A DNA stretch of 33,883 nt from an uncultured Clostridia bacterium (GTDB lineage Bacteria > Bacillota > Clostridia > TANB77 > CAG-465), in NCBI GenBank assembly GCA_947632225.1, contig CANROM010000003.1, positions 1-33,883 of the forward strand, written 5' to 3'. The notes under the pieces are model-generated. The model ran no database searches. It was given only the letters and a program-made list of their open reading frames with translations, and was not told the DNA's origin. Positions 14,452 to 32,949 of this stretch are shown here, in pieces; within the stretch, counting starts at the first letter, position 1; each line of letters starts with the position of its first letter. The translations under genes were made by a program, and so were the position numbers.

Positions 14452-14514
14452 TTGTATTTAAGGGATTCGGGCTTTAACCGAATCCTGGATATGTTTTTTA
14501 ATAGAGGAGAAAAT

Positions 14515-15075
14515 ATGGAAGAGTATTTAGTGAAAGCATTGAAGTTAGGAGAAAAAGACGCTTTTGTCAAACTAATGGAAAGCTATGAAAAGAAGTTATA
14601 TGTTATAGCGAGAAGCAGGCTAGAATGCGAAGAGGATGTAAAAGATGCTTTGCAAGATACATCACTTGAAGTACTAGCTAGTATAGATAAATTAAAAAAT
14701 GATGATTCATTTAATGCATGGATAAGTAGAATACTTATAAATAAATGTAATGACATCATAAAGAAGAAAATTAAATATTGCTATTCGTATGAAGAATTAA
14801 GTGAGAATAATCCATCACTTATTGAATACTATGATAACTTCATATATGTAGACAGCAATATGGATCTATTTTCACTAGTAGATTTCTTACCAATAGAAGA
14901 GCAAACTATAGTAGTTTTGTACTTTTCAGAAGGATATACTACTAATGAAATAGCAAATATTTTAGATATGAATGAAAACACAGTAAGAACAAAAGTTAGA
15001 AGAATAAAGGAAAAAATACAGATGAAGTATGGAAAGGAATATTTAAATGACTGGAACAATAGAAGATATTATTAA
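14515..15075 (+). CDS. ECF RNA polymerase sigma factor
   Basis: AFVKLMESYEKKLY, DALQDT, FNAWISRILIN, EIANILDMNENTVRTK. Confidence 0.92.
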   Translation: MEEYLVKALKLGEKDAFVKLMESYEKKLYVIARSRLECEEDVKDALQDTSLEVLASIDKLKNDDSFNAWISRILINKCNDIIKKKIKYCYSYEELSENNPSLIEYYDNFIYVDSNMDLFSLVDFLPIEEQTIVVLYFSEGYTTNEIANILDMNENTVRTKVRRIKEKIQMKYGKEYLNDWNNRRYY

Positions 15076-15289
15076 GAAAAAGTATGATGAAATAGAAGTG
15101 CCAGCTAAATTGTTAGATTTAGATATAATAATTGAGATGGCTAGAAAAGACGAGAGAAAATTTAAAATAGTAACTGGAGTTGTACTTGCTATAGTTGTAG
15201 TACTTATGAGTCTAGTTATACATTTAAATTTTAAAAGTAACCAAATTAGTGATTATATATCACAACAAAATATATCTCACTTAGAGTAA
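15047..15289 (+). CDS. Putative short anti-sigma factor
   Basis: Overlaps the sigma gene; cytoplasmic YDEIEVP segment, one TM helix, about 20 aa tail. Confidence 0.6.
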   Translation: MTGTIEDIIKKKYDEIEVPAKLLDLDIIIEMARKDERKFKIVTGVVLAIVVVLMSLVIHLNFKSNQISDYISQQNISHLE

Positions 15290-15333
15290 TATTTTTTGCA
15301 TCTAAAAAGAATGCCTTGTGCATTCTTTTTTTT

Positions 15334-15362
15334 TCATTAAATTTGAGTACCTTACATATTAT
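15334..15362 (+). promoter_or_regulatory. SigmaE-like sporulation promoter
   Basis: TCATTAA-N14-CATATTAT; cwlD is sigmaE-controlled in Bacillus subtilis. Confidence 0.45.
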
Positions 15363-15377
15363 GTATTGGGTGGTTTT

Positions 15378-16085
15378 GTGAAAAATAAATATATTATTGT
15401 GGCAATACTTGCTGTTATTTTAATGTTAAATGTATGTGCTATGGTAATTAACATATATCAAGCTCCTAAGACACAGACAACAAATGCTACTGCCATTACT
15501 TCTCATGTTATAGTAGTTGATGCGGGACACGGAAAGCCTGATGAGGGTGCTGTTGGAGTATATGGAACAAGTGAAGAGGCAATAAATTTAAAGATAGCAT
15601 TAAAACTTCAAAAACTAATAGAGCAAAGTGGCGGAATTGTCTTTCTTACTAGAAGTGATGAGAATGGTATATATTCGAGCGATAGTAATACGTTAAGAGA
15701 AAAAAAGGTAAGTGATATAAAAAATAGGGTGCTAATAGGTAATCAAGAAGATGTAGATGCTTTTGTATCAATACATCTAAATAAGTATCCCTCTGGAATA
15801 TATAGTGGCTGGCAAACCTTTTTTCAAAAAGGAAATGAAGAAAGCACTAAACTAGCTAATTGCATACAAAATAGCTTAAATAATACAATATCTAAGCCTA
15901 ATAATAGAACACCATTACCACTAAGCGGTATATACATAATGGATCATCTAGAAAATACAGCTGTTACTGTTGAATGTGGCTTTTTATCTAACCCAGAAGA
16001 AGCTAAAGAGCTAGAGGATGAGAACTATCAAGATAAACTAGCATGGGGAATATACATAGGGCTACAAGAGTATTTTCAAAATTAA
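15378..16085 (+). CDS. cwlD: Germination N-acetylmuramoyl-L-alanine amidase (Amidase_3)
   Basis: N-terminal TM, VVDAGHG, EEAINL, SIHLN, SGWQTFF, VECGFLSNPEE. Confidence 0.8.
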   Translation: MKNKYIIVAILAVILMLNVCAMVINIYQAPKTQTTNATAITSHVIVVDAGHGKPDEGAVGVYGTSEEAINLKIALKLQKLIEQSGGIVFLTRSDENGIYSSDSNTLREKKVSDIKNRVLIGNQEDVDAFVSIHLNKYPSGIYSGWQTFFQKGNEESTKLANCIQNSLNNTISKPNNRTPLPLSGIYIMDHLENTAVTVECGFLSNPEEAKELEDENYQDKLAWGIYIGLQEYFQN

Positions 16086-16111
16086 AAAAAAGTAGTTTAA
16101 AAAACTACTTT
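16084..16111. terminator. Hairpin between convergent genes
   Basis: AAAGTAGTTT-aaa-AAACTACTTT with an A-run on the left. Confidence 0.55.
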
Positions 16112-16773
16112 AATTCATTTAGATACTTATCTAATAGTTTAGACAAGTCTGTGCTATAACTATAGTTAAGTAAGTCTAGTATTTCTGGACAATCTTCAAA
16201 TTTTTTATAATCATATTCATAGAATATGTCTGCTGGATCAGTACAACCATCTTTAATCATTTCCTGTACTTTAGGCGTTTTAAATACTGGTGAGTTAAAA
16301 TCTTTGTCGAGTACTATTTGCCCTTTATCTATATACAGTTTCATTTGTAAGTCGAAATCTAACTTATCACATAGATATGCAAATTTAGCCTCACGTGATT
16401 TTCTTTTATTAAATTCGTTAGTTAGAGCAATGTACTTATTTTCCTTAGTAAGTCCAGAAAGAATTTCTAGAACAGCTTTTTTTCCTATTGCTAGTTTTTC
16501 TTCTTCCGTTACATTATCAAAAGGAGTAATATCTCCAATAACAATTTCCTCAAGCTCGTGAATTATTAGCATCTCTAAAGTCTTCTTGATATCGATATTT
16601 AAATCAAGCTCAGAGTTTATAGATATTGCAAGTATACATGTATCATATATGTGTTCTGCAACACTTTCACGTCTTGGTGCTTGTACGTTCCAATATATAG
16701 AGCCCTGTCTTATTTTATTTTTTAGCGTTGTTGCTAAAAGATAAAATCTTAAAATTTTTTGATTTTTATTCAT
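16105..16773 (-). CDS. HD-domain phosphohydrolase (YfbR/HDDC2-like)
   Basis: RQG..W, RESVAEH, IIHELEEIVIGDITP, DKLD. Confidence 0.88.
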   Translation of the reverse strand: MNKNQKILRFYLLATTLKNKIRQGSIYWNVQAPRRESVAEHIYDTCILAISINSELDLNIDIKKTLEMLIIHELEEIVIGDITPFDNVTEEEKLAIGKKAVLEILSGLTKENKYIALTNEFNKRKSREAKFAYLCDKLDFDLQMKLYIDKGQIVLDKDFNSPVFKTPKVQEMIKDGCTDPADIFYEYDYKKFEDCPEILDLLNYSYSTDLSKLLDKYLNELK

Positions 16774-16926
16774 TCAAACCTTCCTTTCATAATTATACTT
16801 AAGGTGAATTTAAAATTATGTAGGAAGATTATATCATGTAATTTACATAAAATCAATAAAAGAAAATAAAAAAAGAGCAATAGTTGTAACACTATAAATT
16901 GTTTTATAAAAATATTCGAACTTTTG

Positions 16927-16955
16927 TTTACTTATAGCCTATAATATGTTATACT
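16927..16955 (+). promoter_or_regulatory. SigmaA promoter of toxin gene
   Basis: TTTACT-N17-TATACT with extended -10 TG, about 20 nt before the ATG; GAGGTGA RBS. Confidence 0.55.
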
Positions 16956-16974
16956 TAGAAGCCGAGGTGAGATT

Positions 16975-17460
16975 ATGGATAATGAAATTCACAATAATAT
17001 TGAGGAAACCGAAAAATTATTAAATAGTATTAATACTTTTGATGCAGTTCAATTTTCAGAATGGACTAAAGAAAAAGCAAATATAAGATATAATGGCAAA
17101 CTTCCTAAATTTCCAATATATAATAACTTTATCTATTGGTGCAATTTAGGAATAAATATTGGAAGTGAACAAAATAAATTAAGACCAGTTTTAATATTAA
17201 AAAACTTTAAAAACTCGCCTATATGTACAGTTCTTCCATTAACAACAAAAAGAGTACAAGATGAATTCTGGTTTCATATAGATTTAGAAGGAGTTGACTC
17301 AACAGTTTTAGTTGAACAATTGAAAGTTGTTAGTAAATTAAGAATTATAAATCCTTATAGAAGAAAAGGAAACTTAGTTTCTATTTCTTCAAATGACTGG
17401 GAAAAGATTAACTTACAACTTGAAAGTTTATATAGGTTAAGACCACTAAAATATGAATAA
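16975..17460 (+). CDS. PemK/MazF-family endoribonuclease toxin with N-terminal extension
   Basis: IYWCNLGINIGSEQNKLRPVLIL, VLPLTT, VEQLKVVSKLRI. Confidence 0.88.
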   Translation: MDNEIHNNIEETEKLLNSINTFDAVQFSEWTKEKANIRYNGKLPKFPIYNNFIYWCNLGINIGSEQNKLRPVLILKNFKNSPICTVLPLTTKRVQDEFWFHIDLEGVDSTVLVEQLKVVSKLRIINPYRRKGNLVSISSNDWEKINLQLESLYRLRPLKYE

Positions 17461-17510
17461 AGTTTGAATTTAACTTGACTTTATGATATTAAATAGTTTA
17501 TAATTAAATT

Positions 17511-17583
17511 AATAAAACATTAGTGTCCGTTCTGAAAAGAACGTAATCATTATGATCCGATAGCCGAAAGGCTATCGTTTTTT
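17511..17583 (+). ncRNA. Putative small RNA 1 (candidate RNA antitoxin)
   Basis: TTGACT(17475)-N18-TATAAT(17499); ACATTAGTGTCC, hairpin CGTTCT-GAAA-AGAACG, TCATTA, terminator CGATAGCC-GAAA-GGCTATCG-T6. Confidence 0.6.
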
Positions 17584-17617
17584 GCATATAATTTAAGTTC
17601 TTTCATATAATATTATT

Positions 17618-17697
17618 ACATTAGTGTCCATAGCATTTATGCTATGTTAGTCATTAGTAAAAGGAGAAAATCTAAAATATTGATTTTCTCCTTTTTT
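17618..17697 (+). ncRNA. Putative small RNA 2 (paralog of RNA 1)
   Basis: TTGCAT(17582)-N18-TATAAT(17606); ACATTAGTGTCC, hairpin CATAGCA-TTTA-TGCTATG, TCATTA, terminator AAAAGGAGAAAATC-N9-GATTTTCTCCTTTT. Confidence 0.6.
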
Positions 17698-17838
17698 AAA
17701 TACTGACTGATTTTTCATTCATCTTTTTTCTTTCTTGTAGAATGGAAATTTGATTTTAGTAGATATTTCTAATTTCCATAATTTTTATAAACTATAAAAA
17801 ATTAGGAGTGATTAAACAGCATATACTGAATAAAAAAC

Positions 17839-17871
17839 TAAAAAATATCATCCTAAAAAAGGATGATATTT
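17839..17871 (-). terminator. Intrinsic terminator downstream of the tRNA 3' end
   Basis: AAATATCATCCT-aaaa-AGGATGATATTT with A-runs on the left (U-tail on the minus strand). Confidence 0.65.
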
Positions 17872-17908
17872 GTATCTTTTCGTTCTATTAGTTGAACTGA
17901 TTCATTAC

Positions 17909-17958
17909 TGGTGCACCAGAAGGGATTCGAACCCCCAACCGTTCGGTTCGTAGCCGAA
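17909..17958 (-). pseudogene. 3' half of tRNA-Arg(ACG), attachment site of the ICE
   Basis: Reverse complement TTCGG-CTACGAA-CCGAA CGGTT GGGGG-TTCGAAT-CCCTT CTGGTGC A CCA; D arm and 5' acceptor strand absent. Confidence 0.9.
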
Positions 17959-18101
17959 GGTTTTATGAAAAAAGGCACTTTATAGAATAATTTAAAAATC
18001 AGTAAAAAACGATACAAGCATTGAAATAACTTAATTTGAGCAAAGTATTAAAAATTTAAAATAGTTTAAAAAGGATTAAAAAAATCCTAAAAAGTTTAAA
18101 A

Positions 18102-18223: not shown

Positions 18224-18309
18224 AAGCAAAATACAAAAGAATTTTCTAAGCAATAGTAATTATACTATTGTCTTTTTTATGCCTATTTTCTGAAGGGAGA
18301 AAGGTTGAT

Positions 18310-18726
18310 ATGAACAAAGAAAAAATAAACAAAATACTATTTTATCTATATAACTATAATAATATAGATAATTTAATTGAAAAAAGAAAAACAGATATTA
18401 TAGAAAAAACAAATATATCTTCTATTGCTTGGAGAAAATCAAAACAAGGCAATGGAAATACATTAGAGGATCAAGTAATAAAAATTATAGAAGATCCAGT
18501 TATATTAGAATATAAACGATGGCAAGTATTCATTAAAGGAATGCTTGTTTTTTTATGTAAAAATAAACCCTTATTTTATAAATATGTAGAATCGAAATTT
18601 ATTTTAAAATTAGAAAATGATGAAATTATAGAACTTCTAAAAATCGATTTTAAGCAACTAAAAATTTTAAAAGTAAAATTACTAGACCTAATATATAAAA
18701 ATGCGAAAATAAGAAATTTAATTTGA
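18310..18726 (+). CDS. ArpU/RinA-like phage-type transcriptional regulator
   Basis: LYNYNNID...NTLEDQVIKI...KRWQ and C-terminal HTH-like segment. Confidence 0.55.
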   Translation: MNKEKINKILFYLYNYNNIDNLIEKRKTDIIEKTNISSIAWRKSKQGNGNTLEDQVIKIIEDPVILEYKRWQVFIKGMLVFLCKNKPLFYKYVESKFILKLENDEIIELLKIDFKQLKILKVKLLDLIYKNAKIRNLI

Positions 18727-18744
18727 AATTGGAGGTGTTAAATT

Positions 18745-18861
18745 ATGTTTTGGTTTGGACTATGTATAGGATTATTTATAGGAGCTAACCTAAGTTTAGT
18801 ATTATATGCTTGTATTATAGCAGGAAAGGAAAGCGATAAACGAAATGGATACAGAGAATGA
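18745..18861 (+). CDS. Small membrane peptide (DUF3789-like, 38 aa)
   Basis: Hand translation MFWFGLCIGLFIGANLSLVLYACIIAGKESDKRNGYRE; GGAGGTG RBS. Confidence 0.7.
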   Translation: MFWFGLCIGLFIGANLSLVLYACIIAGKESDKRNGYRE

Positions 18862-19606
18862 AGTAAATAGAATTGGCTATTTTGCTGTTATTCCTGCAAC
18901 TGTTTTATTTAATAACAGCTTAAAACCGAATGAAAAATTACTTTATGCTCTTATTACAGCTCTTTCTAATAAAGAAGGTTACTGTTATGCAAGTAATAAG
19001 TATTTAGGAGAAAAATTAGGAGTTGATCCTAAGACAATTACAAGTTGGTTAGCTGATTTAAGAAAGTACAATTATATAATGGTAGATCTTATTAGAAATG
19101 AGAATAAAGAAATTATACAAAGGAAAATTTATCCTCACGATGTACCCTACCCATTAAATAATGTGTACCCCCCTCCACAAAAAAATGGAGAGCCTACCCA
19201 TCAAAAAACGGAAGATAATATAATAAATAATATAAATATAAATACACACACAGTTACAAAAGAAAAATTTTTAGAAAATGTCTATTTATATGATTTTGAA
19301 TACACAGAGTTAGTTAATACTTATGGAGAAAAGAAAGCTAACAAGTGTATTGAAGAATTATCTTTATATAAAGAATCAAAAGGAATTGAATACAAAAGCG
19401 ATTTTGCTACTATAAAAAGATGGGTTGTTGCTAGAGTGGAAGAACTTGAACAAAGACAAGAAAAGCAAAATAGCAAAAATAAAACTAAGAAAAATAATTT
19501 TAGTAATTATGAACAAAGAGAATATCCAGAGGAATTTTGGAATAGTTTATATGAAAATCCACCTATTATTTCTTCAGAAGAAGATGAGATGGATCTTGAT
19601 ATGTAA
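18845..19606 (+). CDS. Phage-type replication initiator (HTH_36 N-terminal domain)
   Basis: YFAVIPA...EKLLY...EGYCYASNKYL, internal iteron-like linker, C-terminal NFSNYEQREY. Confidence 0.75.
   Translation: MDTENEVNRIGYFAVIPATVLFNNSLKPNEKLLYALITALSNKEGYCYASNKYLGEKLGVDPKTITSWLADLRKYNYIMVDLIRNENKEIIQRKIYPHDVPYPLNNVYPPPQKNGEPTHQKTEDNIINNININTHTVTKEKFLENVYLYDFEYTELVNTYGEKKANKCIEELSLYKESKGIEYKSDFATIKRWVVARVEELEQRQEKQNSKNKTKKNNFSNYEQREYPEEFWNSLYENPPIISSEEDEMDLDM
19141..19213. repeat. Iteron-like imperfect repeats (putative origin)
   Basis: Three units of about 23 bp: CCTACCCATTAAATAATG / CCCTCCACAAAAAAATGG / CCTACCCATCAAAAAACGG. Confidence 0.55.
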
Positions 19607-19633
19607 CACAACTAATAAGGTTGTGATTTTTTT
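19607..19633 (+). terminator. Terminator-like hairpin
   Basis: CACAAC-N7-GTTGTG-A-T7. Confidence 0.5.
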
Positions 19634-19652
19634 ATTTTAGGAGGAAATTTAG

Positions 19653-19910
19653 ATGAAAGTTAATAAATATAGTTTTAATGAAAATGTTTTTGGAGAACAA
19701 ATTGAATATATACTTATAGAAGATGAAAAAGAGAAAATTGTTATAGTTGAATATTATAATAAAATTCATATCATAAAAATTGAAAATGAAAAACAATTAC
19801 TAGAACGACTAATTGAATGTAAAATTTTAAATGATTATTTACAGGAAATTATACAAGAGCAAGATGAAGAAATTACAGAGTATGAAAATAATTCAGATAT
19901 GGAGGAATAA
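19653..19910 (+). CDS. Acidic hypothetical protein
   Basis: 85 aa ORF, AGGAGG RBS. Confidence 0.75.
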   Translation: MKVNKYSFNENVFGEQIEYILIEDEKEKIVIVEYYNKIHIIKIENEKQLLERLIECKILNDYLQEIIQEQDEEITEYENNSDMEE

Positions 19911-19915
19911 TCAAT

Positions 19916-20344
19916 ATGAGATTAAATAAAGTAAAAAAGGTTGTACGAAAAAAGCTCTGCGAATATCCTCTATTCTATAAAGACATAGAGGAATTAGAAA
20001 GCAAAAAATCTTTATCTGTAAATAAAGATGAAAATTCGTTTATAAGAAGTAAAAATAAAGTTAATAGAACAGTTGAAACAGAGGCTATTAGAAGTATTGA
20101 AATTGATAATAAAATTGCTGAAATTAAAGAATGGCAAAATATAATTGAAACAGTTTTTGAAGAATTTAAAGAGGATCATATAAAATCTAATGTTGTTGAA
20201 TATAAATTTATAGGCAATTTATCAGAAGATTCTATATGCGACCGATTATGTATTTCTAAAGGTTGTATTAGAAATTATATATTTGAATTCACATACGAAA
20301 TTGGAATATTAGCAATTCTAAAAGGTTTAATTACTTTTAAATAA
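19916..20344 (+). CDS. ArpU/RinA-like transcriptional regulator (second copy)
   Basis: LCEYP...RTVETEAIR...KEWQNIIE, C-terminal ICDRLCISKG HTH. Confidence 0.6.
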   Translation: MRLNKVKKVVRKKLCEYPLFYKDIEELESKKSLSVNKDENSFIRSKNKVNRTVETEAIRSIEIDNKIAEIKEWQNIIETVFEEFKEDHIKSNVVEYKFIGNLSEDSICDRLCISKGCIRNYIFEFTYEIGILAILKGLITFK

Positions 20345-20407
20345 TTATATAAAAAATATTATATAAAAAATGGTACACACAAAATGTAGTACAAAGAAAT
20401 TTTTGTA

Positions 20408-20495
20408 TTGAAACTAGATTTTTTAGTGCTATAATGTATATAATGAAACAAATGTAGGAGATGCAGAGAGTAAAAGCTCTTTGCACCTCTTTTTT
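20408..20495 (+). promoter_or_regulatory. SigmaA promoter followed by strong terminator (short RNA or attenuator)
   Basis: TTGAAA-N16-TATAAT with TG; hairpin GGAGATGCAGAGAGT-aaaa-GCTCTTTGCACCTC-T6. Confidence 0.5.
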
Positions 20496-20560
20496 GTTTC
20501 TAGGTTTGGTATAAACCCTTGGTGTATTGTAAAATTGATTATAGAATGGAGGTAATTAAA

Positions 20561-20836
20561 ATGATTTTTGGAAAGTATGGAGAAATGATATTAACAAATA
20601 TGGAAAATAATTATCCATATAGAAAAAAAGAATTAGAACTCACAGGCGAACTTGAAGTCAAAATATTTGAGCGAGAAAAGTATATTTTAGAGTTAAAGGA
20701 ACAAGTTGAAAAACAAATTAAAGAAAAATATAAAGCTCCTGATACACACGAAATATCTATACTTGCTAAATATCAACAAATGATAGATGGTTTAGTTGAT
20801 GAAGCTCTAATGAAAGATATTTTACAGAAAATATAA
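20561..20836 (+). CDS. TnpV-like protein
   Basis: GKYGEM...MENNYP...LELTGEL motif pattern. Confidence 0.7.
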   Translation: MIFGKYGEMILTNMENNYPYRKKELELTGELEVKIFEREKYILELKEQVEKQIKEKYKAPDTHEISILAKYQQMIDGLVDEALMKDILQKI

Positions 20837-20841
20837 AAATT

Positions 20842-20866
20842 GAGTTAGATTACTAGCTCTTTTTTT
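20842..20866 (+). terminator. Terminator-like hairpin
   Basis: GAGTTAG-atta-CTAGCTC-T7. Confidence 0.55.
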
Positions 20867-20884
20867 ATGGAAAGGAGCTTTTAT

Positions 20885-21883
20885 ATGCTTAATGTTTGGA
20901 TAGGAAATTTAGGCAAATACAATGAAGGAGAACTTGTTGGCGAATGGTTAGAACTTCCTGTTTCAAAGAAAGAGTTAGATACATTTTTAAGAGAAAAAGT
21001 TGGACTCCAGTTGACACAAAAAGAAGTTGATGAGGCACTTGCTAAAGATGGTGTATGCTATGAAGAATATATGATCAATGATTATGAAACAGATCTACCT
21101 ATTAAGGTTAGTGAATATAGTAATCTTAATATGCTCAATTTATTAGCAATGGCATCAGAAAAGGTTGACAATATGGAGGCTATTGAGGCTTATATTGATG
21201 CTCAAAATACAGATGATATTGAAGAAATAATAAATATTATGCTACAAGAAAATGATATACCTTTCTACTCTTATGATGAAGATTCCGAATTTCTTTCAAA
21301 TGAAGAAAAATACGGAATGACTAAGGCTAACCTTAATGGAGTGCAACAAGTGTTAGACGAACATAATATAACAGATTATTTTGACTATGAAAAATACGGT
21401 AATGATTTTGATGTTACTTTATATGATAGTGGTTATATTGATACTACTGCTATGAGTGAAGTCGATTTACATCGCTATTCTTTAGAAGAAATTAAAGATG
21501 AGTTAGATTATAACAATGAAGAAATTGAAGATAAAAAATTAAAAATCGTATATAAAGAAGTTGGAAAAGATCCTGTTGTAATGGAAATTGATAATACCTT
21601 AGAGGCTAAACAAAAATTAGTTGATGGACTAATAGAAGTTGTACCTTACAAAGAAAATCTACTCCTTATATGCAATGAAGAAGGTAAAATTACAAATTTA
21701 AAACCTAATATTCAATTTGATTATGATTACATTGCAGGGAACTGTTTTATAGTAGGAGATGACTTTGAAAATGCAGGTTTTAAGTCTATTGAAGAAAATC
21801 AAATAGAAGATATAAAAAAAGACTTAGAAAATCGAACAATTATCTTAGAAGAAATTGAGGAAACTGATGATATGGAATTTTAA
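20885..21883 (+). CDS. ardA: ArdA antirestriction protein fused to a DUF3846 domain
   Basis: NLGKYNEGELVGEWLELP, YEEYMINDYE, YFDYEKYG; C-terminal NTLEAKQKLVDGLIE...CNEEGK. Confidence 0.88.
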   Translation: MLNVWIGNLGKYNEGELVGEWLELPVSKKELDTFLREKVGLQLTQKEVDEALAKDGVCYEEYMINDYETDLPIKVSEYSNLNMLNLLAMASEKVDNMEAIEAYIDAQNTDDIEEIINIMLQENDIPFYSYDEDSEFLSNEEKYGMTKANLNGVQQVLDEHNITDYFDYEKYGNDFDVTLYDSGYIDTTAMSEVDLHRYSLEEIKDELDYNNEEIEDKKLKIVYKEVGKDPVVMEIDNTLEAKQKLVDGLIEVVPYKENLLLICNEEGKITNLKPNIQFDYDYIAGNCFIVGDDFENAGFKSIEENQIEDIKKDLENRTIILEEIEETDDMEF

Positions 21884-21956
21884 AAAAATTTTTCTAAAAG
21901 GGTTTTGGATTCGATTTTATTTAATTATATAATGCTTTACGAGGAGGTAAAATATT

Positions 21957-22250
21957 ATGCCAAAAGAAAAACTTTTAGAATCAATTTATTGGGATAGAGA
22001 ACAAGGAGAACTCTCAAAGAGAAGTGAATACGAAAAAGAAGTTATCTATGAAATAAAAAGAGATGGCAACGAGGAAAAACTTCGAGAACTTATTGAAAAA
22101 ATCTATAACAAAAAATTGAGTAAAAAAATTGACAAATACTTAGACTTAACTTTAGAAGATATGTTAAAAAAGCAATCTGCAACATTAGATAAATACTATA
22201 AGCAAGGTTTTAAAGATGGAATATGTTTGTTAATTGAATGTATTAGTTAA
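21957..22250 (+). CDS. Hypothetical protein
   Basis: 97 aa, AGGAGG RBS, upstream TTGGAT-N17-TATAAT, C-terminal YYKQGFKDG. Confidence 0.75.
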   Translation: MPKEKLLESIYWDREQGELSKRSEYEKEVIYEIKRDGNEEKLRELIEKIYNKKLSKKIDKYLDLTLEDMLKKQSATLDKYYKQGFKDGICLLIECIS

Positions 22251-22278
22251 GGGTTAGTTTTATACTAACTCTTTTTTT
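22251..22278 (+). terminator. Terminator-like hairpin
   Basis: GGGTTAGT-tttat-ACTAACTC-T7. Confidence 0.55.
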
Positions 22279-22289
22279 GGAGGCTTAAA

Positions 22290-22709
22290 TTGAAAAATAT
22301 ACGATTATTTATAAAAGATAAAAACTTAAATATGCTAAAAGCATTTTCAGATGAAAGCTATTTATATAATTATATTGTAAATAACTATTCAGAACTTCCT
22401 GAAGAAAATATATTTAGAAATCCTACCATTATAAAAAAGATAAATGAAATGATTTATATTTCTAAAGATAATATTTCAAGCGATGATGAAATTGTATGGA
22501 ACGAAACAAGCAAAGATTTAAAATCAAAAAATGTTTCTTTTTATGCAGTAGTTTTAGATCCTATAAATGGATCCTTTAATATATATAATAACTTAAAATC
22601 CTCTATTCCCTATTTACAAATAAGTTCAAATACAGACATATTTGATGCTGTAAATAAGATTGAACAATTTAATAAAGAGCTTGAATATGAGGAAGAAATG
22701 GAGATATAG
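22290..22709 (+). CDS. Hypothetical protein
   Basis: 139 aa, TTG start with GGAGG RBS. Confidence 0.75.
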   Translation: MKNIRLFIKDKNLNMLKAFSDESYLYNYIVNNYSELPEENIFRNPTIIKKINEMIYISKDNISSDDEIVWNETSKDLKSKNVSFYAVVLDPINGSFNIYNNLKSSIPYLQISSNTDIFDAVNKIEQFNKELEYEEEMEI

Positions 22710-22710
22710 A

Positions 22711-22992
22711 ATGAAGAACTTAAAATTACAATGGATTGATAAGATTCCTCCTCCTGAAGAAAGAAATCCTGAACTATTTTATTATGATATAAGAAATTCT
22801 GAAATAGATAATGGCTATACTGTTGAACGAGGTGTACTTGCAAACAATATAGGCTCTTTAGTTACAAATAAAGATATTTTAGGAGATAAAAAATTTATAA
22901 CAGATGAAGAATTAAATAGCTTACATTATGAGGAAGTTCAAGACTTATATGTAAAACAAAATTCTATTGAATCTGATATAGAACTTGAATAG
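22711..22992 (+). CDS. LPD28-like (large polyvalent protein-associated domain) protein
   Basis: LFYYDIRNSE...TVERGVLANNIGSLVT pattern. Confidence 0.6.
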   Translation: MKNLKLQWIDKIPPPEERNPELFYYDIRNSEIDNGYTVERGVLANNIGSLVTNKDILGDKKFITDEELNSLHYEEVQDLYVKQNSIESDIELE

Positions 22993-23003
22993 GAGGAAGT
23001 ATT

Positions 23004-23906
23004 TTGAGTATAGAAGATGCAAGAAAAAAGTTTGTGGTTGATAAAACACCTGAAACAATAGAAAAATCAGAAACAAAAAAAGTTGAAAACACTAATAATA
23101 TTATAAATATTGAATTAAGTAAATTGGTTGCTTTTAGAAAAAGGCAACCTTTTTCTATGTATGATGAAATAAAAAAACAAGAAGTTTTACAGAGTATAAA
23201 AGAAAATGGAGTTTTAGTACCTATTATTATTAGAAAAATTGCTAATGATAAATACGAAATTATATCAGGACATAATCGAGTAGAATGCTCAAAAGAATTG
23301 CAATTATCCACTATTCCTGCTCAAATTGTGGAATGTGATGATGATAAAGCTAGTTTGATTATGTTAGATACTAACCTTTGTAATAGAGATAAAATACCTC
23401 CTGTTGAAAAAGGTTATGCTTACAAAATGAAAATGGAAATATTAAAAAACAACCCTAATATAAGTAATATCAATGAGTTTAACGAAAATTCCCCTGAGGG
23501 TAATTCTGAAAGTAAAACACAGATTTATAGATATATAAGACTTACAGAACTTATAAAAGCACTACAAGAAAAAACAAATAATGAAATTATATCTATAAAA
23601 GCAGGAGTTGAATTATCTTATTTATCACAGGAAGAACAGGAAATTATAAATCAAGTAATAGATGATGAACAAATAAAACTCTCACTTGTTCAAGCACAAA
23701 AAATTAGATTAAAGAAAAATAAAATTACTTATGAATCAGTTTTAAATCTACTTAAAAACAAAAAAGAAAAGTCAGAAAAATTTACAGGTAAATTAAATAA
23801 ACAGGTTTTTAAAGAATATAAAGACAAGTTTAATTCTGATAAAGAATTCAGTATTTTAATTAAGAAATTATTAGATGATTATTTTAAGAGCGATAGCGAT
23901 ACATAG
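23004..23906 (+). CDS. ParB/Spo0J-family protein
   Basis: SIKENGVLVPIIIR, YEIISGHNR, DTNLCNR, TQIYRYIRLTEL. Confidence 0.88.
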   Translation: MSIEDARKKFVVDKTPETIEKSETKKVENTNNIINIELSKLVAFRKRQPFSMYDEIKKQEVLQSIKENGVLVPIIIRKIANDKYEIISGHNRVECSKELQLSTIPAQIVECDDDKASLIMLDTNLCNRDKIPPVEKGYAYKMKMEILKNNPNISNINEFNENSPEGNSESKTQIYRYIRLTELIKALQEKTNNEIISIKAGVELSYLSQEEQEIINQVIDDEQIKLSLVQAQKIRLKKNKITYESVLNLLKNKKEKSEKFTGKLNKQVFKEYKDKFNSDKEFSILIKKLLDDYFKSDSDT

Positions 23907-23975
23907 CAAGATTCCCCTTTGTCAGTACAAAGGGAGCAAAAAGTACCTTTTTTTGATCAAGTGGTTGCACCACAT
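23904..23975 (-). other. Putative oriT
   Basis: Upstream of mobC; minus strand AATCTTG|CT resembles MOBP nic sites; inverted repeats CCCTTTGT-cagt-ACAAAGGG and GTGGT-tgc-ACCAC. Confidence 0.55.
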
Positions 23976-24005
23976 AAGTTTTATTAGCACAAGGAAGGAG
24001 AAATA

Positions 24006-24314
24006 TTGAGAAAGACAGACAGAATAGAAATTAGAGTAACTCCTGAAGAAAAAATGAATATAACTTTAAAAAGCAAACAAGCTAATCAAAGTATTTCTGA
24101 ATTCTTAATAAACAGTTCTACTGGAAAAAATATTGTAGTAATAAATGAACTGCCTGAGATGGTAACTGAGCTTAGAAGAATCGGAAATAATATAAATCAA
24201 TTAACAAGACTTGCTAATAGCAGAGTTATTACTTGTGTTGATTTAGAAGGTACAAAAAAGGAGTTACAAAAATTATGGCAATCATTAAATTTATTAACAA
24301 TAAAGTCAGTTTAA
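24006..24314 (+). CDS. mobC: MobC relaxosome accessory protein (RHH)
   Basis: IEIRVTPEEK, ELRRIGNNINQL signature. Confidence 0.9.
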   Translation: MRKTDRIEIRVTPEEKMNITLKSKQANQSISEFLINSSTGKNIVVINELPEMVTELRRIGNNINQLTRLANSRVITCVDLEGTKKELQKLWQSLNLLTIKSV

Positions 24315-25213
24315 AAAAGACTTTAGATTATATATGCAAAGAAGAAAAAACAGATAAAAAGCTGATTACAGGTAAAGATTGCATACCTGAAAATGCTTAC
24401 GAAGAAATGATGACAGTTAAGAATATGTATAATAAGCTAATTGGTAGAGAAAAAATACATTTTGTTCAATCCTTCTCTCCTACTGATAAATTAACTTATG
24501 AACAAGCACACGAGATAGGAATTAGAATGGCTGAATATTTTAAAGGTTTTCAAGTAATAGTTGCTACACATATTGATAGAGAACATATACATAATCATAT
24601 TGTTTTAAATACTGTAAATTTTGAAACAGGTTTAAAGTTTCATCAAAGTAAACTTGACTTACAAAAAATTAAAGACTTGTCAAATAAAATATGCAAGGAA
24701 TATGGACTTACTGTAACAGAACAAAAATCAAAAGTTTCAGATATTAAAATAAATGAATATCAAGCAAAATTAAAAGGTATTAGTTGGAAACAACTATTAA
24801 CAAATGATATTGATTCTGTTATGGAAAAATCAAACAACAAATATGAATTTTTTAAAGGTATGAATAAGCTAGGCTATAAAGTAAATTGGAGTAAAGAAAA
24901 ATTAAGTATTATATACACTACTCCTACTGGTTATAAATGTAGTGATAAAAAACTCCATAAAGAAAAATACTTACGAGAAAATATGGAGCAATATTTTAAA
25001 GAAAAATCAAGAAAGAACATTAAAGGTATTAAGAATGAAAAAATTACTTATAAAAGTATTCATTCTAACCTTGCAGACATTATTGAACAAATAAGCAAAA
25101 ATAAACAATTAGATAATACAACCTCTTTAACTGGATTAAATGAAAGTGCTAAAAAACAATTTGCTATTGAGATGCATTATAGCACAGAAGAATTAGAAGA
25201 TATGGAACTTTAG
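24275..25213 (+). CDS. MOBP-family relaxase
   Basis: LDYI, HFVQSFSP, ATHIDREHIHNHIVLN (HUH). Confidence 0.92.
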   Translation: MAIIKFINNKVSLKKTLDYICKEEKTDKKLITGKDCIPENAYEEMMTVKNMYNKLIGREKIHFVQSFSPTDKLTYEQAHEIGIRMAEYFKGFQVIVATHIDREHIHNHIVLNTVNFETGLKFHQSKLDLQKIKDLSNKICKEYGLTVTEQKSKVSDIKINEYQAKLKGISWKQLLTNDIDSVMEKSNNKYEFFKGMNKLGYKVNWSKEKLSIIYTTPTGYKCSDKKLHKEKYLRENMEQYFKEKSRKNIKGIKNEKITYKSIHSNLADIIEQISKNKQLDNTTSLTGLNESAKKQFAIEMHYSTEELEDMEL

Positions 25214-25216
25214 GAG

Positions 25217-25576
25217 GTGGTAATTATTGATAAACAGAATATGTTAGTTCTCATAGTTGAAAATAATAAAGATCCTGAGTTAAAAAGAATTCCAAATAGA
25301 CTTAATACATTAAGAAGAATTGTAGGAAATGAACATATAGAAGTAATTAAATATAAAGATGTCCTTATAGTATATGATGAGGAGGCATTTAAAAAGTTAC
25401 TTCCTATAAATAGAATCATTGATGGATTAAATATAAGAGGAAATTTTGTAATAACAGGAAACGATACAAAAAATCAAGATTTTAAAGATTTAACTGAAGA
25501 ACAAATAAAAGCATATACTGTTGAATTTGAATTAGAAAATAACTTAGAACAAGGAGATGAGCTAGAAAATGAATAA
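25217..25576 (+). CDS. DUF3846 family protein (start uncertain)
   Basis: NRLNTLRRIVG..IE, YDEE, PINR, IRGNFVITG; resembles the ArdA C-terminal domain. Confidence 0.7.
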   Translation: MVIIDKQNMLVLIVENNKDPELKRIPNRLNTLRRIVGNEHIEVIKYKDVLIVYDEEAFKKLLPINRIIDGLNIRGNFVITGNDTKNQDFKDLTEEQIKAYTVEFELENNLEQGDELENE

Positions 25577-27371
25577 AAAGAAAATTAGTATTATAGCAAT
25601 TTTATCAATGCTGAACATTCCATTAATCATAATTTTAAGTGCTATAATTCATACTAAAATGGCTAAAATAGAGTTTGCACAAATAGTAGTTGATAAGCAA
25701 TTATTACTACTATTTTTTCTTTTATATTTGCTTGTAGAGGTTATAATAGTTATGCTTTTTGGTTTTGAAAATAAAAATAGTTTTCAAAGTGAAACAGTTA
25801 GTATTACAGATAAATTAAGAACTCCTGAAATAATGGGACAAGGGCAACATGGAACAGCACGATGGCTAACTAAAAAAGAATTTAGAAAGGCTTTTAAATG
25901 TAATACTTTAAGTAATACTAATGATACTTTTAATTCAGGTGGAATTATTGTAGGTTATGAAAAAAATAAAAAGCAGGAAAATATTTATTATATTGATGAT
26001 AATATACATAGTTTAGTAGTTGGTGCTACTAGAAGTGGTAAAACTAGAAGTATTGTTTTACAAACAGTTGGAAATTTAGGCTTGTCAGGCGAAAGTATGA
26101 TTATTTCAGATCCAAAAGCTGAAATATATCATTATACTTCAAAATTCTTAGAAAATTTAGGTTATGACATTATAACTTTAGATTTTAAAAATCCTACTAA
26201 AAGTACAAGTTACAATTTTCTACAACCTGTAATTGATGCAGTAAATAGAAATGACTTCAGAAAAGCTGAAGAATATGCTTGGGATATAACACAGAGTTTA
26301 GTTGGAAATGAAGAAACTAAGATGGAAAAAATTTGGCGAGATGGCGAGATGTCAGTAATTGCAGGTGCAATTATGAGTGTTGTTTTTGACAATAAAGAAA
26401 ATCCTGAATATCAGAATTTAACTAATGTATATTCTTTTATTTCAGAAATGTGTAAAACAACAGGACAACAAATGCCTATAAATAAATATATTGAAAGTTT
26501 GCCTCCTGAACATCCTTCAAGCACAATTTTTAGCATTGCACGAATTGCACCTGAAAAAACTAGAGGCTCTTTTTTTACTTCTGCCCTTACTACTCTTAGA
26601 TTATTTACAAGTAAAAGTATTTATGGAATGACTTGTAAAAGTGATTTTAGCTTAAAACAAGCAGGAGAAAAAAAGACTGTAACTTATATTATACTTCCTG
26701 ATGAAAAAACAACTTATTATCCCCTTGCCTCACTTTTTGTTTATCAAAACTATGTTTCACTTGTTGAATCTGCTGATGAACGAGGAGGCGAATTAAAAAC
26801 AAGAGTAAATTACATTTTAGATGAGTTTGGAAATTTTACAACTATTCCCTCATTTAGTAATATGCTCACAGTTTCAGGAGGTAGAAAAATTAGATTTAAT
26901 TTGTTCTTACAATCATTTTCACAACTTGAAAATAAATATGGTCGTGAAATTGCTGAAAATATTAGAGATAACTGTCAAACTTGGATTTATTTGAAAACTG
27001 CCTCAAATGAAACAGCTTCAGTAATTTCAAAAAAACTAGGTTGCTATACAACTTCTAGTTATAGTAGATCAAGTAGTTATAGTAAATATCAAAATGGCAG
27101 TAACTCAGAATCAGTAAATTTAATTAGTAGAAATTTATTGACTGAAGATGAAATACTTAGAATAGAAAGACCTTATGTTTTAGTAATTCAAACAGGTCTA
27201 TTCCCTATTATCACTAAACTTCCTGATATTTCAAAATGGAAATTTAATAGTTTATTTGGAATGGGAAATCAAGAGCATAACAGAAGATTAAGACTTGAAA
27301 GAGAAAATCAAAGACCTATAAAAGAAATTGAAGATATAAAACTATGGGGAATTTGGAATATGTATAGATAA
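25569..27371 (+). CDS. virD4: VirD4/TraG type IV coupling protein
   Basis: Two TM helices, HGTARW, GATRSGKT, SDPKAE, LDEFGN, LQSFSQL. Confidence 0.93.
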   Translation: MNKKKISIIAILSMLNIPLIIILSAIIHTKMAKIEFAQIVVDKQLLLLFFLLYLLVEVIIVMLFGFENKNSFQSETVSITDKLRTPEIMGQGQHGTARWLTKKEFRKAFKCNTLSNTNDTFNSGGIIVGYEKNKKQENIYYIDDNIHSLVVGATRSGKTRSIVLQTVGNLGLSGESMIISDPKAEIYHYTSKFLENLGYDIITLDFKNPTKSTSYNFLQPVIDAVNRNDFRKAEEYAWDITQSLVGNEETKMEKIWRDGEMSVIAGAIMSVVFDNKENPEYQNLTNVYSFISEMCKTTGQQMPINKYIESLPPEHPSSTIFSIARIAPEKTRGSFFTSALTTLRLFTSKSIYGMTCKSDFSLKQAGEKKTVTYIILPDEKTTYYPLASLFVYQNYVSLVESADERGGELKTRVNYILDEFGNFTTIPSFSNMLTVSGGRKIRFNLFLQSFSQLENKYGREIAENIRDNCQTWIYLKTASNETASVISKKLGCYTTSSYSRSSSYSKYQNGSNSESVNLISRNLLTEDEILRIERPYVLVIQTGLFPIITKLPDISKWKFNSLFGMGNQEHNRRLRLERENQRPIKEIEDIKLWGIWNMYR

Positions 27372-27384
27372 GGAGAATTTATGT

Positions 27385-27732
27385 ATGAAGAAAATAAAAG
27401 AAAAAACAAAAAGATATTTAGAAAAAATAGGAAAAGCAGGACTTGTTATAACAAGTCTTTTTTGTGCAACAGGCACTTGTTTTGCAGGAGTTCAAGACAG
27501 CAAAATAGCAACAGGAACTCAAAACTTAATAACTGATTTAACTAATTGGCTTTTAATACTTGCTCCTGTTTTAACAGTATTATTAGTTGGTTATTACTTG
27601 CTTAGAAAATCATCAAGCGATGAAATGGATGGCAAGAGATGGGACTCAAGAATAAAAGTAGCAATTATATGCTGTGTAGGTGTAATAGTTGCTAGTGGAC
27701 TTATAAATTTAATAGTTGGATATTATAAATAA
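27385..27732 (+). CDS. Pilin-like (VirB2-like) conjugation protein
   Basis: Signal peptide ending TCFA then two hydrophobic helices; position after VirD4. Confidence 0.6.
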   Translation: MKKIKEKTKRYLEKIGKAGLVITSLFCATGTCFAGVQDSKIATGTQNLITDLTNWLLILAPVLTVLLVGYYLLRKSSSDEMDGKRWDSRIKVAIICCVGVIVASGLINLIVGYYK

Positions 27733-27743
27733 GGAGGTACATT

Positions 27744-28601
27744 TTGGAATCAATTTTAACTGGTTTGATTACCAGTATTATTGGTGGTGCTGATAATGTA
27801 ATTAACTCTGCATTTAATGGACTTATTGATATGTGTTTTAATTCAGAAAACTATATATCTTCTAATTTTGGAAGTACAGTAGTTGATTTTTCAGGATTAA
27901 AAGCACTTATTTTAAGTTTAGCAATATCTTTAATAGTATTGAAGTTTCTAAAAAAAGGTTTCGATATGTATATTTTATGGACTGATGGAGAATCTGATAC
28001 TCCTCCACTTACATATATTGTTTATTTTATTAGAGCAATAGTTGTAGCTGTTAGTTTTTCCGTTTTATATGACTGGATAATTCAGATCGCTAAGTCTTTT
28101 GGAGAATCCATATTAACAGCAATGAATATGGCAAATAACATATCATTAACTACTACCATTGCTAATATTGCGACTTCAGGTTTATTCACAGCAATAGTAG
28201 CTTTAATTGCTTTAATACTATTATTTGTTTTATATATACAATTTTTAATGAGATCCTTAGAAATGTTTGTATTAAAACTTGGATTTCCTTTAGCTTGTGT
28301 TGGTTTAGTAAATCCTGATGGAGGAGTTTTTAAATCATATTCAGAAAAGCTAGTTAAAAGTATTTTAACAGTTTTAGTACAGATTATATTATGCAAAATC
28401 GCAATAATACTGATAATGAATGTAAAAATGTTGTTTGGAATCGCCTCAATTATAATGGCGATTAAAACACCTAAGTTCTTACAAGAATTTATGCTTGGTG
28501 GTGGAACTGGTGGCATTAGTAATGTAATAGTTACTACAAGTAAAACTATGGAACTTTCTTCTCAGATCAAGAGAAAACTTAGTACATTAAAGAAAGGGTA
28601 A
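27744..28601 (+). CDS. VirB6/TrbL-like membrane protein
   Basis: Multi-TM, RSLEMFVLKLGFPLACVG. Confidence 0.75.
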   Translation: MESILTGLITSIIGGADNVINSAFNGLIDMCFNSENYISSNFGSTVVDFSGLKALILSLAISLIVLKFLKKGFDMYILWTDGESDTPPLTYIVYFIRAIVVAVSFSVLYDWIIQIAKSFGESILTAMNMANNISLTTTIANIATSGLFTAIVALIALILLFVLYIQFLMRSLEMFVLKLGFPLACVGLVNPDGGVFKSYSEKLVKSILTVLVQIILCKIAIILIMNVKMLFGIASIIMAIKTPKFLQEFMLGGGTGGISNVIVTTSKTMELSSQIKRKLSTLKKG

Positions 28602-28604
28602 TTT

Positions 28605-28862
28605 ATGGATACTTTAAATGAAATAATAAGTTTATTAAGAGTTGTGATAATACCACTAGGAGTGGTATTTAGAGTTGTTTTTTGCTTAACAAAAATGATT
28701 TATGATGAAGATGCTCAAGGCTCATATAAGAAAAAAATTAGAAATACCATAGTTTTTGGAGTTATAGCAGAGCTTATATTTGTAGTTCTTGCTTTAATTC
28801 AAAATTATTATGGTACAGGAGATATTATACCTTCCCATTTCTCAGGTGGTGGAGGTAGATAA
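28605..28862 (+). CDS. Small two-TM conjugation protein (second pilin-like)
   Basis: Two hydrophobic helices around KKKIRN, ending ..YYG like the first pilin-like gene. Confidence 0.55.
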   Translation: MDTLNEIISLLRVVIIPLGVVFRVVFCLTKMIYDEDAQGSYKKKIRNTIVFGVIAELIFVVLALIQNYYGTGDIIPSHFSGGGGR

Positions 28863-28882
28863 TATGCTAAAGGAGGCTTTTA

Positions 28883-29206
28883 ATGAACAATGAAGATGAA
28901 TACAAACTATATATTCCTTCTAATGTAAAAACTAGAATGGAATTTTTTAAAGGGTATGGTGTTACAGAACTTATATCTACAATAATTGTTTTTGCTTGTT
29001 TACTCCCTATTAGTTTAATTATTTATAACTTAAAAGGTAATCTATTACTACCTGTTGTAATTGAGTTTATAGGAGTTGCAGGAACAATTATAGCAACTGC
29101 TAAAGATGAAAATAATTTATGTGTTACTAGACAAATAAAATTTTTAATTGACTTTGCTAATACACAAAAACAGTATAGATATAAATACTTTAATAAATGG
29201 AGGTAG
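28883..29206 (+). CDS. PrgI/VirB3-like protein
   Basis: YIPSNVKTRMEFFKG, two TM helices, QKQYRY. Confidence 0.65.
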   Translation: MNNEDEYKLYIPSNVKTRMEFFKGYGVTELISTIIVFACLLPISLIIYNLKGNLLLPVVIEFIGVAGTIIATAKDENNLCVTRQIKFLIDFANTQKQYRYKYFNKWR

Positions 29207-29210
29207 AAAA

Positions 29211-29822
29211 TTGTTTAAAATAATTAGTAATTTATTTGGTAAAAAATCAAAAGACATTACTTGCAATGAAGAAGTTGGAATCTTAGATATTAGAAATAAC
29301 TATATTTATACAAGGGATGGTAATGTAATTGCAGGACTTAAAATATATTCAATAAATACACAATTACTTACTGAAAGAGAAAAACAAAACCTAATAAATG
29401 AATTATCTGCTGAACTTTCTTCAGAACAAGGAGAACTTAAATACTTTAATATTGCTAGAGCTGTTGATATATCTCCTCTACAAGAATATTTAACAGAGAT
29501 TATAAATACAACAGATAATGCAATACAAAAAAGATTATTAAAAACACATTTAAAAGAAGTACAAAGATTGTCTTTGAATGGAGAAATCGTTGAAAGGCAA
29601 TCTTTTTTAATGATAAATGCTAAGCACGATGATAACTCAGAAAAAGACTTATTAAAAAGATGCTTAGATTTAAGTAATAAATTTGAGAGATGTAGCATTA
29701 AAACAGAAATTCTTGATGAACCTTCTCTGATACAATTATGCAACAGCTTTTTGAATATGAACTATGCACACAGAGAAGATACTGAAATTGAGGATAAAGT
29801 TTTAATGCTGAAGGAGGCTTAA
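29211..29822 (+). CDS. TrsD-like VirB4 partner protein
   Basis: TTG start with GGAGG RBS; LKIYSINTQLLTERE, RAVDIS; directly before VirB4. Confidence 0.65.
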   Translation: MFKIISNLFGKKSKDITCNEEVGILDIRNNYIYTRDGNVIAGLKIYSINTQLLTEREKQNLINELSAELSSEQGELKYFNIARAVDISPLQEYLTEIINTTDNAIQKRLLKTHLKEVQRLSLNGEIVERQSFLMINAKHDDNSEKDLLKRCLDLSNKFERCSIKTEILDEPSLIQLCNSFLNMNYAHREDTEIEDKVLMLKEA

Positions 29823-29823
29823 T

Positions 29824-32384: not shown

Positions 32385-32385
32385 A

Positions 32386-32934: not shown

Positions 32935-32949
32935 AAAGAGGTGGTTTAT

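Follow-up and report, generated by a model that had tools for sequence, protein, structure and literature searches.

A LexA-box PemK/MazF gene co-inherited with two modular small RNAs in gut Clostridia: a candidate toxin with proposed RNA antitoxins

We analysed a window of 33,883 nucleotides (nt) from an uncultured Clostridia bacterium (contig CANROM010000003.1 of assembly GCA_947632225.1, positions 1 to 33,883; all coordinates without further mention refer to this whole stretch). The original prediction for this DNA, made from the sequence alone, had seen an orphan PemK/MazF toxin gene followed by two structured small RNAs and had proposed that the RNAs neutralise the toxin. Positions 16915-17697 of the forward strand are a compact, self-contained and horizontally mobile three-gene cassette, made of a promoter with a LexA box, the pemK gene and two small RNA genes. 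The explanation that accounts best for it is a toxin-antitoxin system in which a MazF-family toxin would be held in check by RNA antitoxins in a type III-like manner, the RNAs binding the ribonuclease (RNase) as mimics of its substrate or product. We give this explanation about an even chance. The evidence from the window itself is limited. Terminator-like sites are enriched in it (4 found, 0.3 expected) but promoter-like sites are not (9 found, 10.6 +/- 3.7 expected). The 12-mer shared by the two RNAs (ACATTAGTGTCC) has only two copies in the genome of 1,325,725 bases, at 17517 and at 17618, with 0 occurrences of the reversed control, but when up to two mismatches are allowed it is at chance level (2 against 1.93). 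Comparison across genomes provides the decisive evidence.

A scan using one genome per species returned 84 relatives, of which 80 loci were kept, nearly all from uncultured gut Clostridia. When pemK is intact and followed by at least 250 nt of sequence (63 loci), both RNA units are present in 60 loci, one unit in two and none in a single locus. The two loci with one unit contain a hybrid, recombinant between the two 12-mers. Among the five intact genes with less than 250 nt downstream, none has two units, two have one and three have none, and for two of these three the RNAs lie elsewhere in the genome assembly, on a different contig. The seven loci where pemK has an early stop or a deletion have two units (four loci), one (one locus) or none (two loci). 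In the remaining 5 of the 80 loci pemK is cut by the contig end. The covariance model built from the RNAs (R1) gave 140 matches in 87 sources, all of them at cassette sites, and the motif thus recurs beside homologs of the gene as the original prediction had anticipated. Two apparent cases of a toxin without RNAs were rejected. In one of them (L086, genome G452) an insertion separates the gene from its RNAs: the element, which has inverted ends and is bordered by a duplicated target of 7 bp (GAAAATT), sits between the pemK stop and the RNA 1 promoter and breaks the assembly there (L086 about 3010-3040, L117 about 95-135). In the other (L070) the RNAs lie on another contig of genome G453. A further locus with less than 250 nt downstream (L087) belongs to a genome, G454, where no exact 12-mer was found.

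Outside the cassette the loci have different neighbours: clustering gives 32 groups for 46 upstream flanks and 30 groups for 43 downstream flanks. A relative's 3-kb contig in an RNA library (metatranscriptome) matches the window exactly at 16915-17697 and diverges on both sides. Since the flanks are unrelated, the conserved unit consists of the promoter, pemK, RNA 1 and RNA 2, about 780 bp, without a protein partner. Words of the cassette occur in 21 sequencing runs, each with 5-9% of the sampled words, and four RNA runs cover the cassette of relatives. The original prediction had noted that pemK has no antitoxin gene on either side, and we agree: the list of open reading frames (ORFs) contains no possible antitoxin of at least 25 amino acids (aa) between 16773 and 17808, and no partner belongs to the recurring cassette. 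The stretches from the promoter to pemK and from pemK to the RNAs contain no ORF, and the flanks offer no protein partner, although a genome-wide search for MazE-like proteins was not made.

The decay of the cassette is asymmetric. RNAs are still present at 5 of the 7 pemK pseudogenes. These pseudogenes include cases in five species-level genomes: one in which TGA replaces the conserved Trp30 codon (L092) and two in which the gene is out of frame with an early stop (L104, L105), all three keeping both RNAs, and two that have no RNAs (L099, L106). A covariance model of the RNA core, run on 60 genomes of the same genus and order, found matches in five, all at cassette sites: two have the cassette, two have lost pemK by deletion while keeping both RNAs (G011, G012) and one has a single degenerate RNA remnant (G016). 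Loss of the toxin while the RNA is kept, and almost never the reverse, is expected of a toxin and its antidote. Linkage and co-divergence would be equally strong if the RNAs were dedicated substrates or working partners of PemK, as an SOS-triggered RNA switch or as guiding cofactors, rather than its antidote. The RNAs do contain the ACAU core of the site cut by MazF of Bacillota, the leader of 5-6 nt that precedes ACAUU in RNA 1 could be trimmed, and the toxicity of PemK is itself only inferred. We nevertheless find this alternative unlikely. A substrate should become useless without its enzyme, at odds with the pattern of decay, and no conserved target gene belongs to the cassette. Nor is an independent cellular role for the RNAs visible, because among the 60 genomes they are found only beside pemK or its remnants.

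Both RNAs are at the places where the original prediction had put them, each with a promoter, the identical 12-mer, a hairpin closed by C-G, a TCATTA motif (17547 and 17651) and a terminator. The promoter of RNA 1 (TTGACT-18-TATAAT, 17475-17504) matches the consensus at 11 of 12 positions and begins 15 nt past the pemK stop. RNA 1 itself extends over 17511-17583, with a predicted start near 17511 and a covariance-model match of 54.9 bits. It is composed of the 12-mer ACAUUAGUGUCC (17517-17528) with a 6-bp hairpin (17528-17543), and of UCAUUAUGAUCC (17547-17558) with the terminator hairpin (17558-17577) and its U6; the DNA between the two hairpins includes TCATTATGATCC. The terminator scan picked up this terminator, an 8-bp GC-rich hairpin followed by T6. 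Because no terminator lies between the pemK stop and unit 1, RNA 1 is likely also the 3' end of the pemK messenger RNA (mRNA). The promoter of RNA 2 is formed by TTGCAT (17582-17587), 18 nt and TATAAT (17606-17611), and is absent from the promoter-scan list because its -35 box matches the consensus at three of six positions only. RNA 2 (17618-17697, 61.1 bits) starts its module with the same ACAUUAGUGUCC (17618-17629), followed by a 7-bp hairpin (17629-17646). Its 3' part contains a degenerate UCAUUA (17651-17656), a 14-bp terminator stem (17659-17695) and a run of U up to 17697. The predicted folds are stable: unit 1 reaches -22.9 kcal/mol (z -5.0), unit 2 reaches -28.6 kcal/mol (z -7.3), and 0 of 200 shuffled sequences folded as well.

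These elements are conserved. The 12-mer is exact in 130 of 137 RNA copies. The hairpin that follows it, in 81 distinct cores of the two units combined, has 97.7% of its cells paired and compensatory changes at four of six pairs. Shuffles give 36 +/- 4 doubly changed cells where the alignment has 110, and the pairing is lost when the partner is shifted along. Unit 1 alone shows compensatory changes at four of six hairpin pairs and four of eight terminator pairs. In unit 2 the terminator has been replaced by unrelated ones in several loci, so that its conserved part is the first ~45 nt. The promoters are kept as well: all copies of unit 1 (68 of 68) have the -10 box and 58 of them have TTGACT, and unit 2 has its -10 box in 66 of 69 copies, ending 6 nt before ACAUU in 59. 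The same distance of 6 nt separates the -10 box from ACAUU in six other loci (L004, L005, L007, L114, L115 and L141). Because of this exact distance, RNA 2 should start with ACAUU, whereas the gap of 10-12 nt in unit 1 implies a short leader before it. The outer structure fared less well. The original prediction had proposed that UAGUG pairs with the second CAUUA in both RNAs, to give a shared stem, internal loop and stem. Such pairing is found in the minimum-energy folds of the window, but in unit 1 none of its seven pairs shows compensatory change and 79.9% of cells are paired; in unit 2 a single pair has a double change, and the stem does not recur in other clades. Lacking compensatory change in unit 1 and recurrence elsewhere, it is not counted as structure here. 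The two GAAA tetraloops that had also been noted are present in the window but are not conserved across loci. Finally, the idea that the units encode small peptides was discarded: they have no conserved ATG or ribosome-binding arrangement, and the terminator of unit 2 is swapped among loci.

The RNAs are better read as copies of one module, in which a single-stranded [A/U]CAUU(A/G)-N3-6-UCC precedes a hairpin opened by its last C. A detector of this module finds three copies within 102 nt in the window and 45 copies in the 2.65 million strand-bases of the whole genome (both strands). Of nine loci from other clades, seven have one to three copies within a downstream stretch of at most 320 nt. 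The more distant clades make the repetition explicit. In L114 and L115 unit 1 reads ACAUUGUAAUCC-hairpin-GUAA-UCAUUGUAAUCC-terminator. In L141 the copies are ACAUUACAUGUCC, UCAUUACGCGAUCC and ACAUUACGCGAUCC, each ahead of a hairpin, and the ACAUU motif reads ACAUUAC(AU/GC)G(U/A)UCC. L142 carries several units ACAUUAGA(U/A)UCC on one transcript, and L143 and L144 have ACAUUAAUUCUUCC and UCAUUAAUUAUUCC. Since modules are repeated in these clades, the second CAUUA is a second copy of the module. Even with PemK at 35% identity (L005, ACAUUAGAUUAA) and at 27% (L007 and L008, ACAUUUAGAGUUG) there are still two promoted and terminated RNAs beginning with ACAUU. Loci L145 and L146 (32% identity, short matches) were left out of this comparison. 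Taken together, the sequences indicate that the two RNAs are genuine paralogues in close linkage with long PemK genes, distant ones included, and that the RNA changes with the protein clade yet keeps ACAUU.

An invariant single-stranded 5' end resembles the seed of a small RNA, and a LexA-controlled toxin gene beside small RNAs with constitutive promoters fits the regulatory logic of type I systems. IstR-1 controls the SOS-induced tisB, and SymR controls symE, by pairing with the mRNA. The RNAs of the cassette might likewise form duplexes with the mRNA of pemK, near its ribosome-binding site or at other positions, and so prevent its translation or trigger its decay; short matches do exist in the window, e.g. 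UCAUUA with UAAUGA at codons 3-4. We hold this to be very unlikely. Against dinucleotide shuffles, the pairing of the RNA core with positions -30 to +45 of pemK in 45 loci has a mean z of +0.58 (unit 1) and +0.20 (unit 2). When two conserved RNA segments are compared with the whole mRNA in 38 loci the mean z is -0.03 and +0.15, and the best sites scatter. There is no antisense overlap in cis, because the RNA genes follow pemK and share its strand. Moreover, a repeated motif is typical of protein-binding arrays and not of a seed.

The gene itself (16975-17460) encodes a long PemK/MazF-family endoribonuclease of 161 aa. Its sole Pfam match is PF02452 (PemK_toxin), at residues 53-150 (57.8 bits for a cut-off of 23.1, E=1.5e-15), and no NCBIfam and no PADLOC model matches it. 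In the AlphaFold2 model (predicted local distance difference test, pLDDT, of 91.6) an N-terminal helical hairpin (helices 3-19 and 22-40) stands ahead of the MazF core. Structure (Foldseek, E about 1e-7) and profile searches rank S. aureus MazF and B. subtilis EndoA first, with B. anthracis MoxT and B. cereus MazF also among the best matches; all of these leave the first ~52 residues uncovered. Five residues (E65, R70, P71, P88 and R123) are invariant in 38 members, and W30 of the extension is nearly so. The active-site Arg and Thr of MoxT and EndoA, residues which we take to be catalytic in the solved MazF enzymes, correspond in the alignment to R70 and the PLT(T/S) loop. The fold and the conserved Arg and Thr/Ser make PemK a likely active RNase. 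In the genome of the window it is the single PemK-like gene. In metagenomes the protein is abundant, with 590 proteins at E<=1e-3 among 615 candidates, and the 120 matches listed have lengths of 149-165 aa and identities of at least 77%. The family is nevertheless narrow: a set of 1.84 billion proteins contains 7 representative clusters at E<=1e-30, and when a distant member of the subfamily served as query, relatives were found in 4 of 399 genomes sampled across the class.

The N-terminal extension of ~50 aa is common to the wider clade of long PemK proteins. Its confident folding as a helical hairpin, its presence throughout the clade and the near invariance of W30 would fit a check of PemK by protein, either by its own extension or by a distant MazE-like antitoxin, the RNAs being passengers or an element for termination or stability. 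A locus that keeps an open pemK without RNAs (L059) points in the same direction. Passenger RNAs, however, would not persist down to 27% identity of the protein while keeping ACAUU and the two-unit layout, and a mere terminator has no need for strong promoters, which are conserved here. In addition, no conserved protein gene travels with the cassette, and the search for PemK-like genes in the genome returned this one only. Hence, a protein check seems to us quite unlikely.

The promoter of pemK (TTTACT, a 17-nt spacer and TG-n-TATACT, 16927-16955) was found by the promoter scan and is kept in related loci. It ends ~20 nt before the ATG, as the original prediction had stated, for a predicted leader of ~13 nt. 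The LexA operator was absent from that account. A LexA (Cheo) box-like operator, CGAACTTTTGTTTA, lies at 16917-16930 and overlaps the -35 box of this promoter. The pattern CGAAC-N4-GTTY has only five copies in the genome, and three of them precede lexA, recA and pemK. The lexA copy, 70 nt before the ORF (TIGR00498, 3.2e-70), reads CGAACTTTTGTTTG, and the recA copy lies 37 nt before the ORF (TIGR02012, 1.5e-170). The operator of pemK shares 13 of 13 bases with that of the genome's own lexA. Among 74 related loci, 60 have a similar box, mostly CAAACTTTTGTTTA, ahead of pemK. In carrier genomes the lexA promoter has CAAACTTTTGTTTG (G458) or CGAAATTTTGTTTG (G459), and in three further ones (L136-L138) it keeps the right half-site only (ATATGTTTGACA); LexA sites with a weak left arm may be acceptable in this clade. 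Since the pemK promoter carries lexA's own operator, the toxin would be SOS-induced: pemK is probably repressed by LexA and induced by DNA damage. The original prediction had suggested an abortive-infection sensor of transcription shut-off, for which we found no link to phages, no relative of the cassette in IMG/VR and no PADLOC match. The operator points to induction by DNA damage instead of, or besides, the sensing of transcription shut-off. As a separate observation, a good GAAC-N4-GTTC box, AGAACAAAAGTTCG, is found in L143 (about 1835-1850), ~230 nt downstream of the RNA unit and before another gene. Other SOS genes may thus cluster with such cassettes.

We favour RNA antitoxins of a type III-like kind because an RNase without protein partner is associated with repeated RNA modules in strict co-inheritance, because the toxin is lost before the RNA, because ACAUU is kept while the remainder of the RNA follows the protein clade, and because strong constitutive RNA promoters face a repressible toxin promoter. 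The system might work as follows. The operator over the pemK promoter would keep basal transcription low and allow induction upon DNA damage, while two RNAs of ~70-85 nt would be transcribed from their own near-consensus promoters directly downstream of the gene. With three clear modules per locus, as here, a PemK dimer would bind modules as uncleavable or slowly cleaved mimics. The nearest characterised MazF enzymes of Bacillota cut at U^ACAUA (bioRxiv 10.64898/2026.08.06.743204). RNA 2 probably starts exactly at pppACAUU and would resemble the 3' product of such a cut. An RNA starting with ACAUU could sit in the recognition groove while presenting no bond that can be cut; the hairpin and UCC would add affinity, and the N-terminal helical extension of this clade may hold the adjacent hairpin. 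Excess RNA would silence the RNase, and the toxin would act when its synthesis outruns that of the RNA, as in the SOS response, or once the RNAs are no longer made. In 53 distinct pemK coding sequences ACAT is rarer than in synonymous shuffles (38 against 59 +/- 6), which is a hint only since these sequences are related.

Several points weigh against this account. The link between U^ACAUA and PemK rests on relatives at about 20-26% identity, and neither of the two most distant clades (L005; L007/L008) has the UCC part of the module. The LexA box is missing in 14 of the 74 loci, including more distant members, and is not general in other clades. The RNA libraries are assembled contigs and silent on the ends, strand and level of transcripts. 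At locus L059 (genome G451) an intact pemK ORF is not accompanied by an RNA in the surrounding 2.5 kb; exact copies of the 12-mer are absent from this genome, and two matches with one mismatch look like chance. The PemK of this locus does carry S81F and E105G, at positions that are identical in 52 of the 53 other copies, which we count with the asymmetric decay as speaking for an antidote. A pemK mRNA that carries RNA 1 in cis complicates simple titration, and the enzyme might be restrained by its own N-terminal extension.

The contexts of the cassette are often mobile. In the window, a fragment of the 3' end of a transfer RNA (tRNA) lies at 17905-17958 of the reverse strand, ~200 nt past the cassette (RF00005, 23.4 bits, below the gathering score), and the window contains no whole tRNA. 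Beyond it, at 18268-33771 of the forward strand, follow genes for a helix-turn-helix protein, ArdA, ParB, a relaxase, a TraG/VirD4 coupling protein, TrbL, a VirB4-like ATPase, an M23 peptidase and an MT-A70 methylase, a run typical of an integrative conjugative element, of which the tRNA fragment is probably one attachment site. Between the cassette and this fragment, a perfect 12-bp inverted repeat with runs of T on both sides (17843-17871) looks like a bidirectional terminator. Upstream of pemK is an HD-domain ORF (16105-16773, reverse strand; Pfam), itself preceded at 14452-16085 by a gene for an extracytoplasmic function (ECF)-type sigma factor, a small membrane ORF that could be an anti-sigma factor, and an Amidase_3 (CwlD-like) gene, all ordinary chromosomal context. 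Where loci have flanks in common, the largest group (L037, 3232-5386 of the reverse strand and 1201-2375) has the cassette between genes for TnpV, DUF6664 and a NikA-like mobilisation protein and a convergent pair encoding a PRTase-like protein and a TPR-HEPN_LA2681 protein. This pair looks like a defence or abortive-infection module.

More specifically, the cassette may be the first member of a new class of RNA-antitoxin systems, where a genuine MazF/PemK enzyme is neutralised, in place of MazE, by repeat RNAs that mimic its product (5'-ACAUU and a UCC-hairpin) and are gripped by a clade-specific N-terminal helical domain, with the toxin gene wired to the SOS response. This fuller proposal is tentative, and our belief in it falls somewhat short of even. 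If true, the system would be a living intermediate between type II and type III toxin-antitoxin systems, and a switch for RNA cleavage triggered by DNA damage on mobile elements of gut Clostridia. Should the RNAs be the antidote, the boundary between types II and III would blur, a route would be suggested for the evolution of RNA antitoxins from substrates, and a class of 'orphan' MazF genes would be explained, while the biology of abundant uncultured gut Clostridia and of their mobile elements would gain an SOS-controlled RNase. A sequence-specific RNase with an RNA off-switch could also serve as a tool. The RNA module is small and sharply defined, which makes the idea directly testable.

MazF and PemK are among the best-studied bacterial toxins and, to our knowledge, have always been described with protein antitoxins. 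In full-text literature searches, judged mostly from abstracts, we found no RNA-controlled MazF or PemK (including PMC2701414, PMC7354611, PMC7470975). An RNA motif named after pemK exists as an Rfam family (bioRxiv 10.1101/2024.10.12.618037). Our RNAs differ from it: in line with the novelty claimed by the original prediction, neither this covariance model nor any other of 4227 Rfam families matched, at gathering score in the window and 10 related loci or at E<=10 in 16780-18000. The pemK RNA motif is likewise a structured RNA beside pemK genes of Bacillota. With MazEF and PemIK of Bacillota (EndoA/MazF, MoxT) the toxin shares its fold and the conserved Arg and Thr/Ser, these enzymes being its closest solved relatives, and by analogy its recognition site likely contains ACAU. 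Unlike these type II systems, it has no adjacent mazE or pemI gene and possesses an extra N-terminal helical hairpin.

Type III systems share several features with the cassette. As described in PMC3401426, PMC5086642 and PMC8860590, ToxIN, CptIN and TenpIN also associate an endoribonuclease toxin lacking a protein antitoxin with an adjacent non-coding RNA of repeated units with short structured elements, have transcription arranged for an excess of RNA over toxin, and are found on mobile elements. There are also differences. The toxin here belongs to PF02452 (PemK/MazF) and not to ToxN/AbiQ, CptN or TenpN. Its RNA is located downstream, as two units with their own promoters, whereas type III systems have an upstream array and a leaky terminator before the toxin. 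The repeats are few (about three) and imperfect, with ordinary hairpins of which one doubles as terminator, and the toxin is under a LexA operator. ToxN is itself a protein of Kid/MazF-like fold. The SOS type I systems tisB/istR-1, symE/symR and dinQ/agrB place a LexA-repressed toxin gene beside constitutive genes for silencing small RNAs, and the cassette has the same regulatory layout. It departs from them in that its toxin is a 161-aa RNase rather than a small membrane peptide and the complementarity between RNA and mRNA is at chance. The cassette thus resembles type III systems in its proposed mechanism and SOS type I systems in its regulation, and belongs to none of types I, II and III as these are defined.

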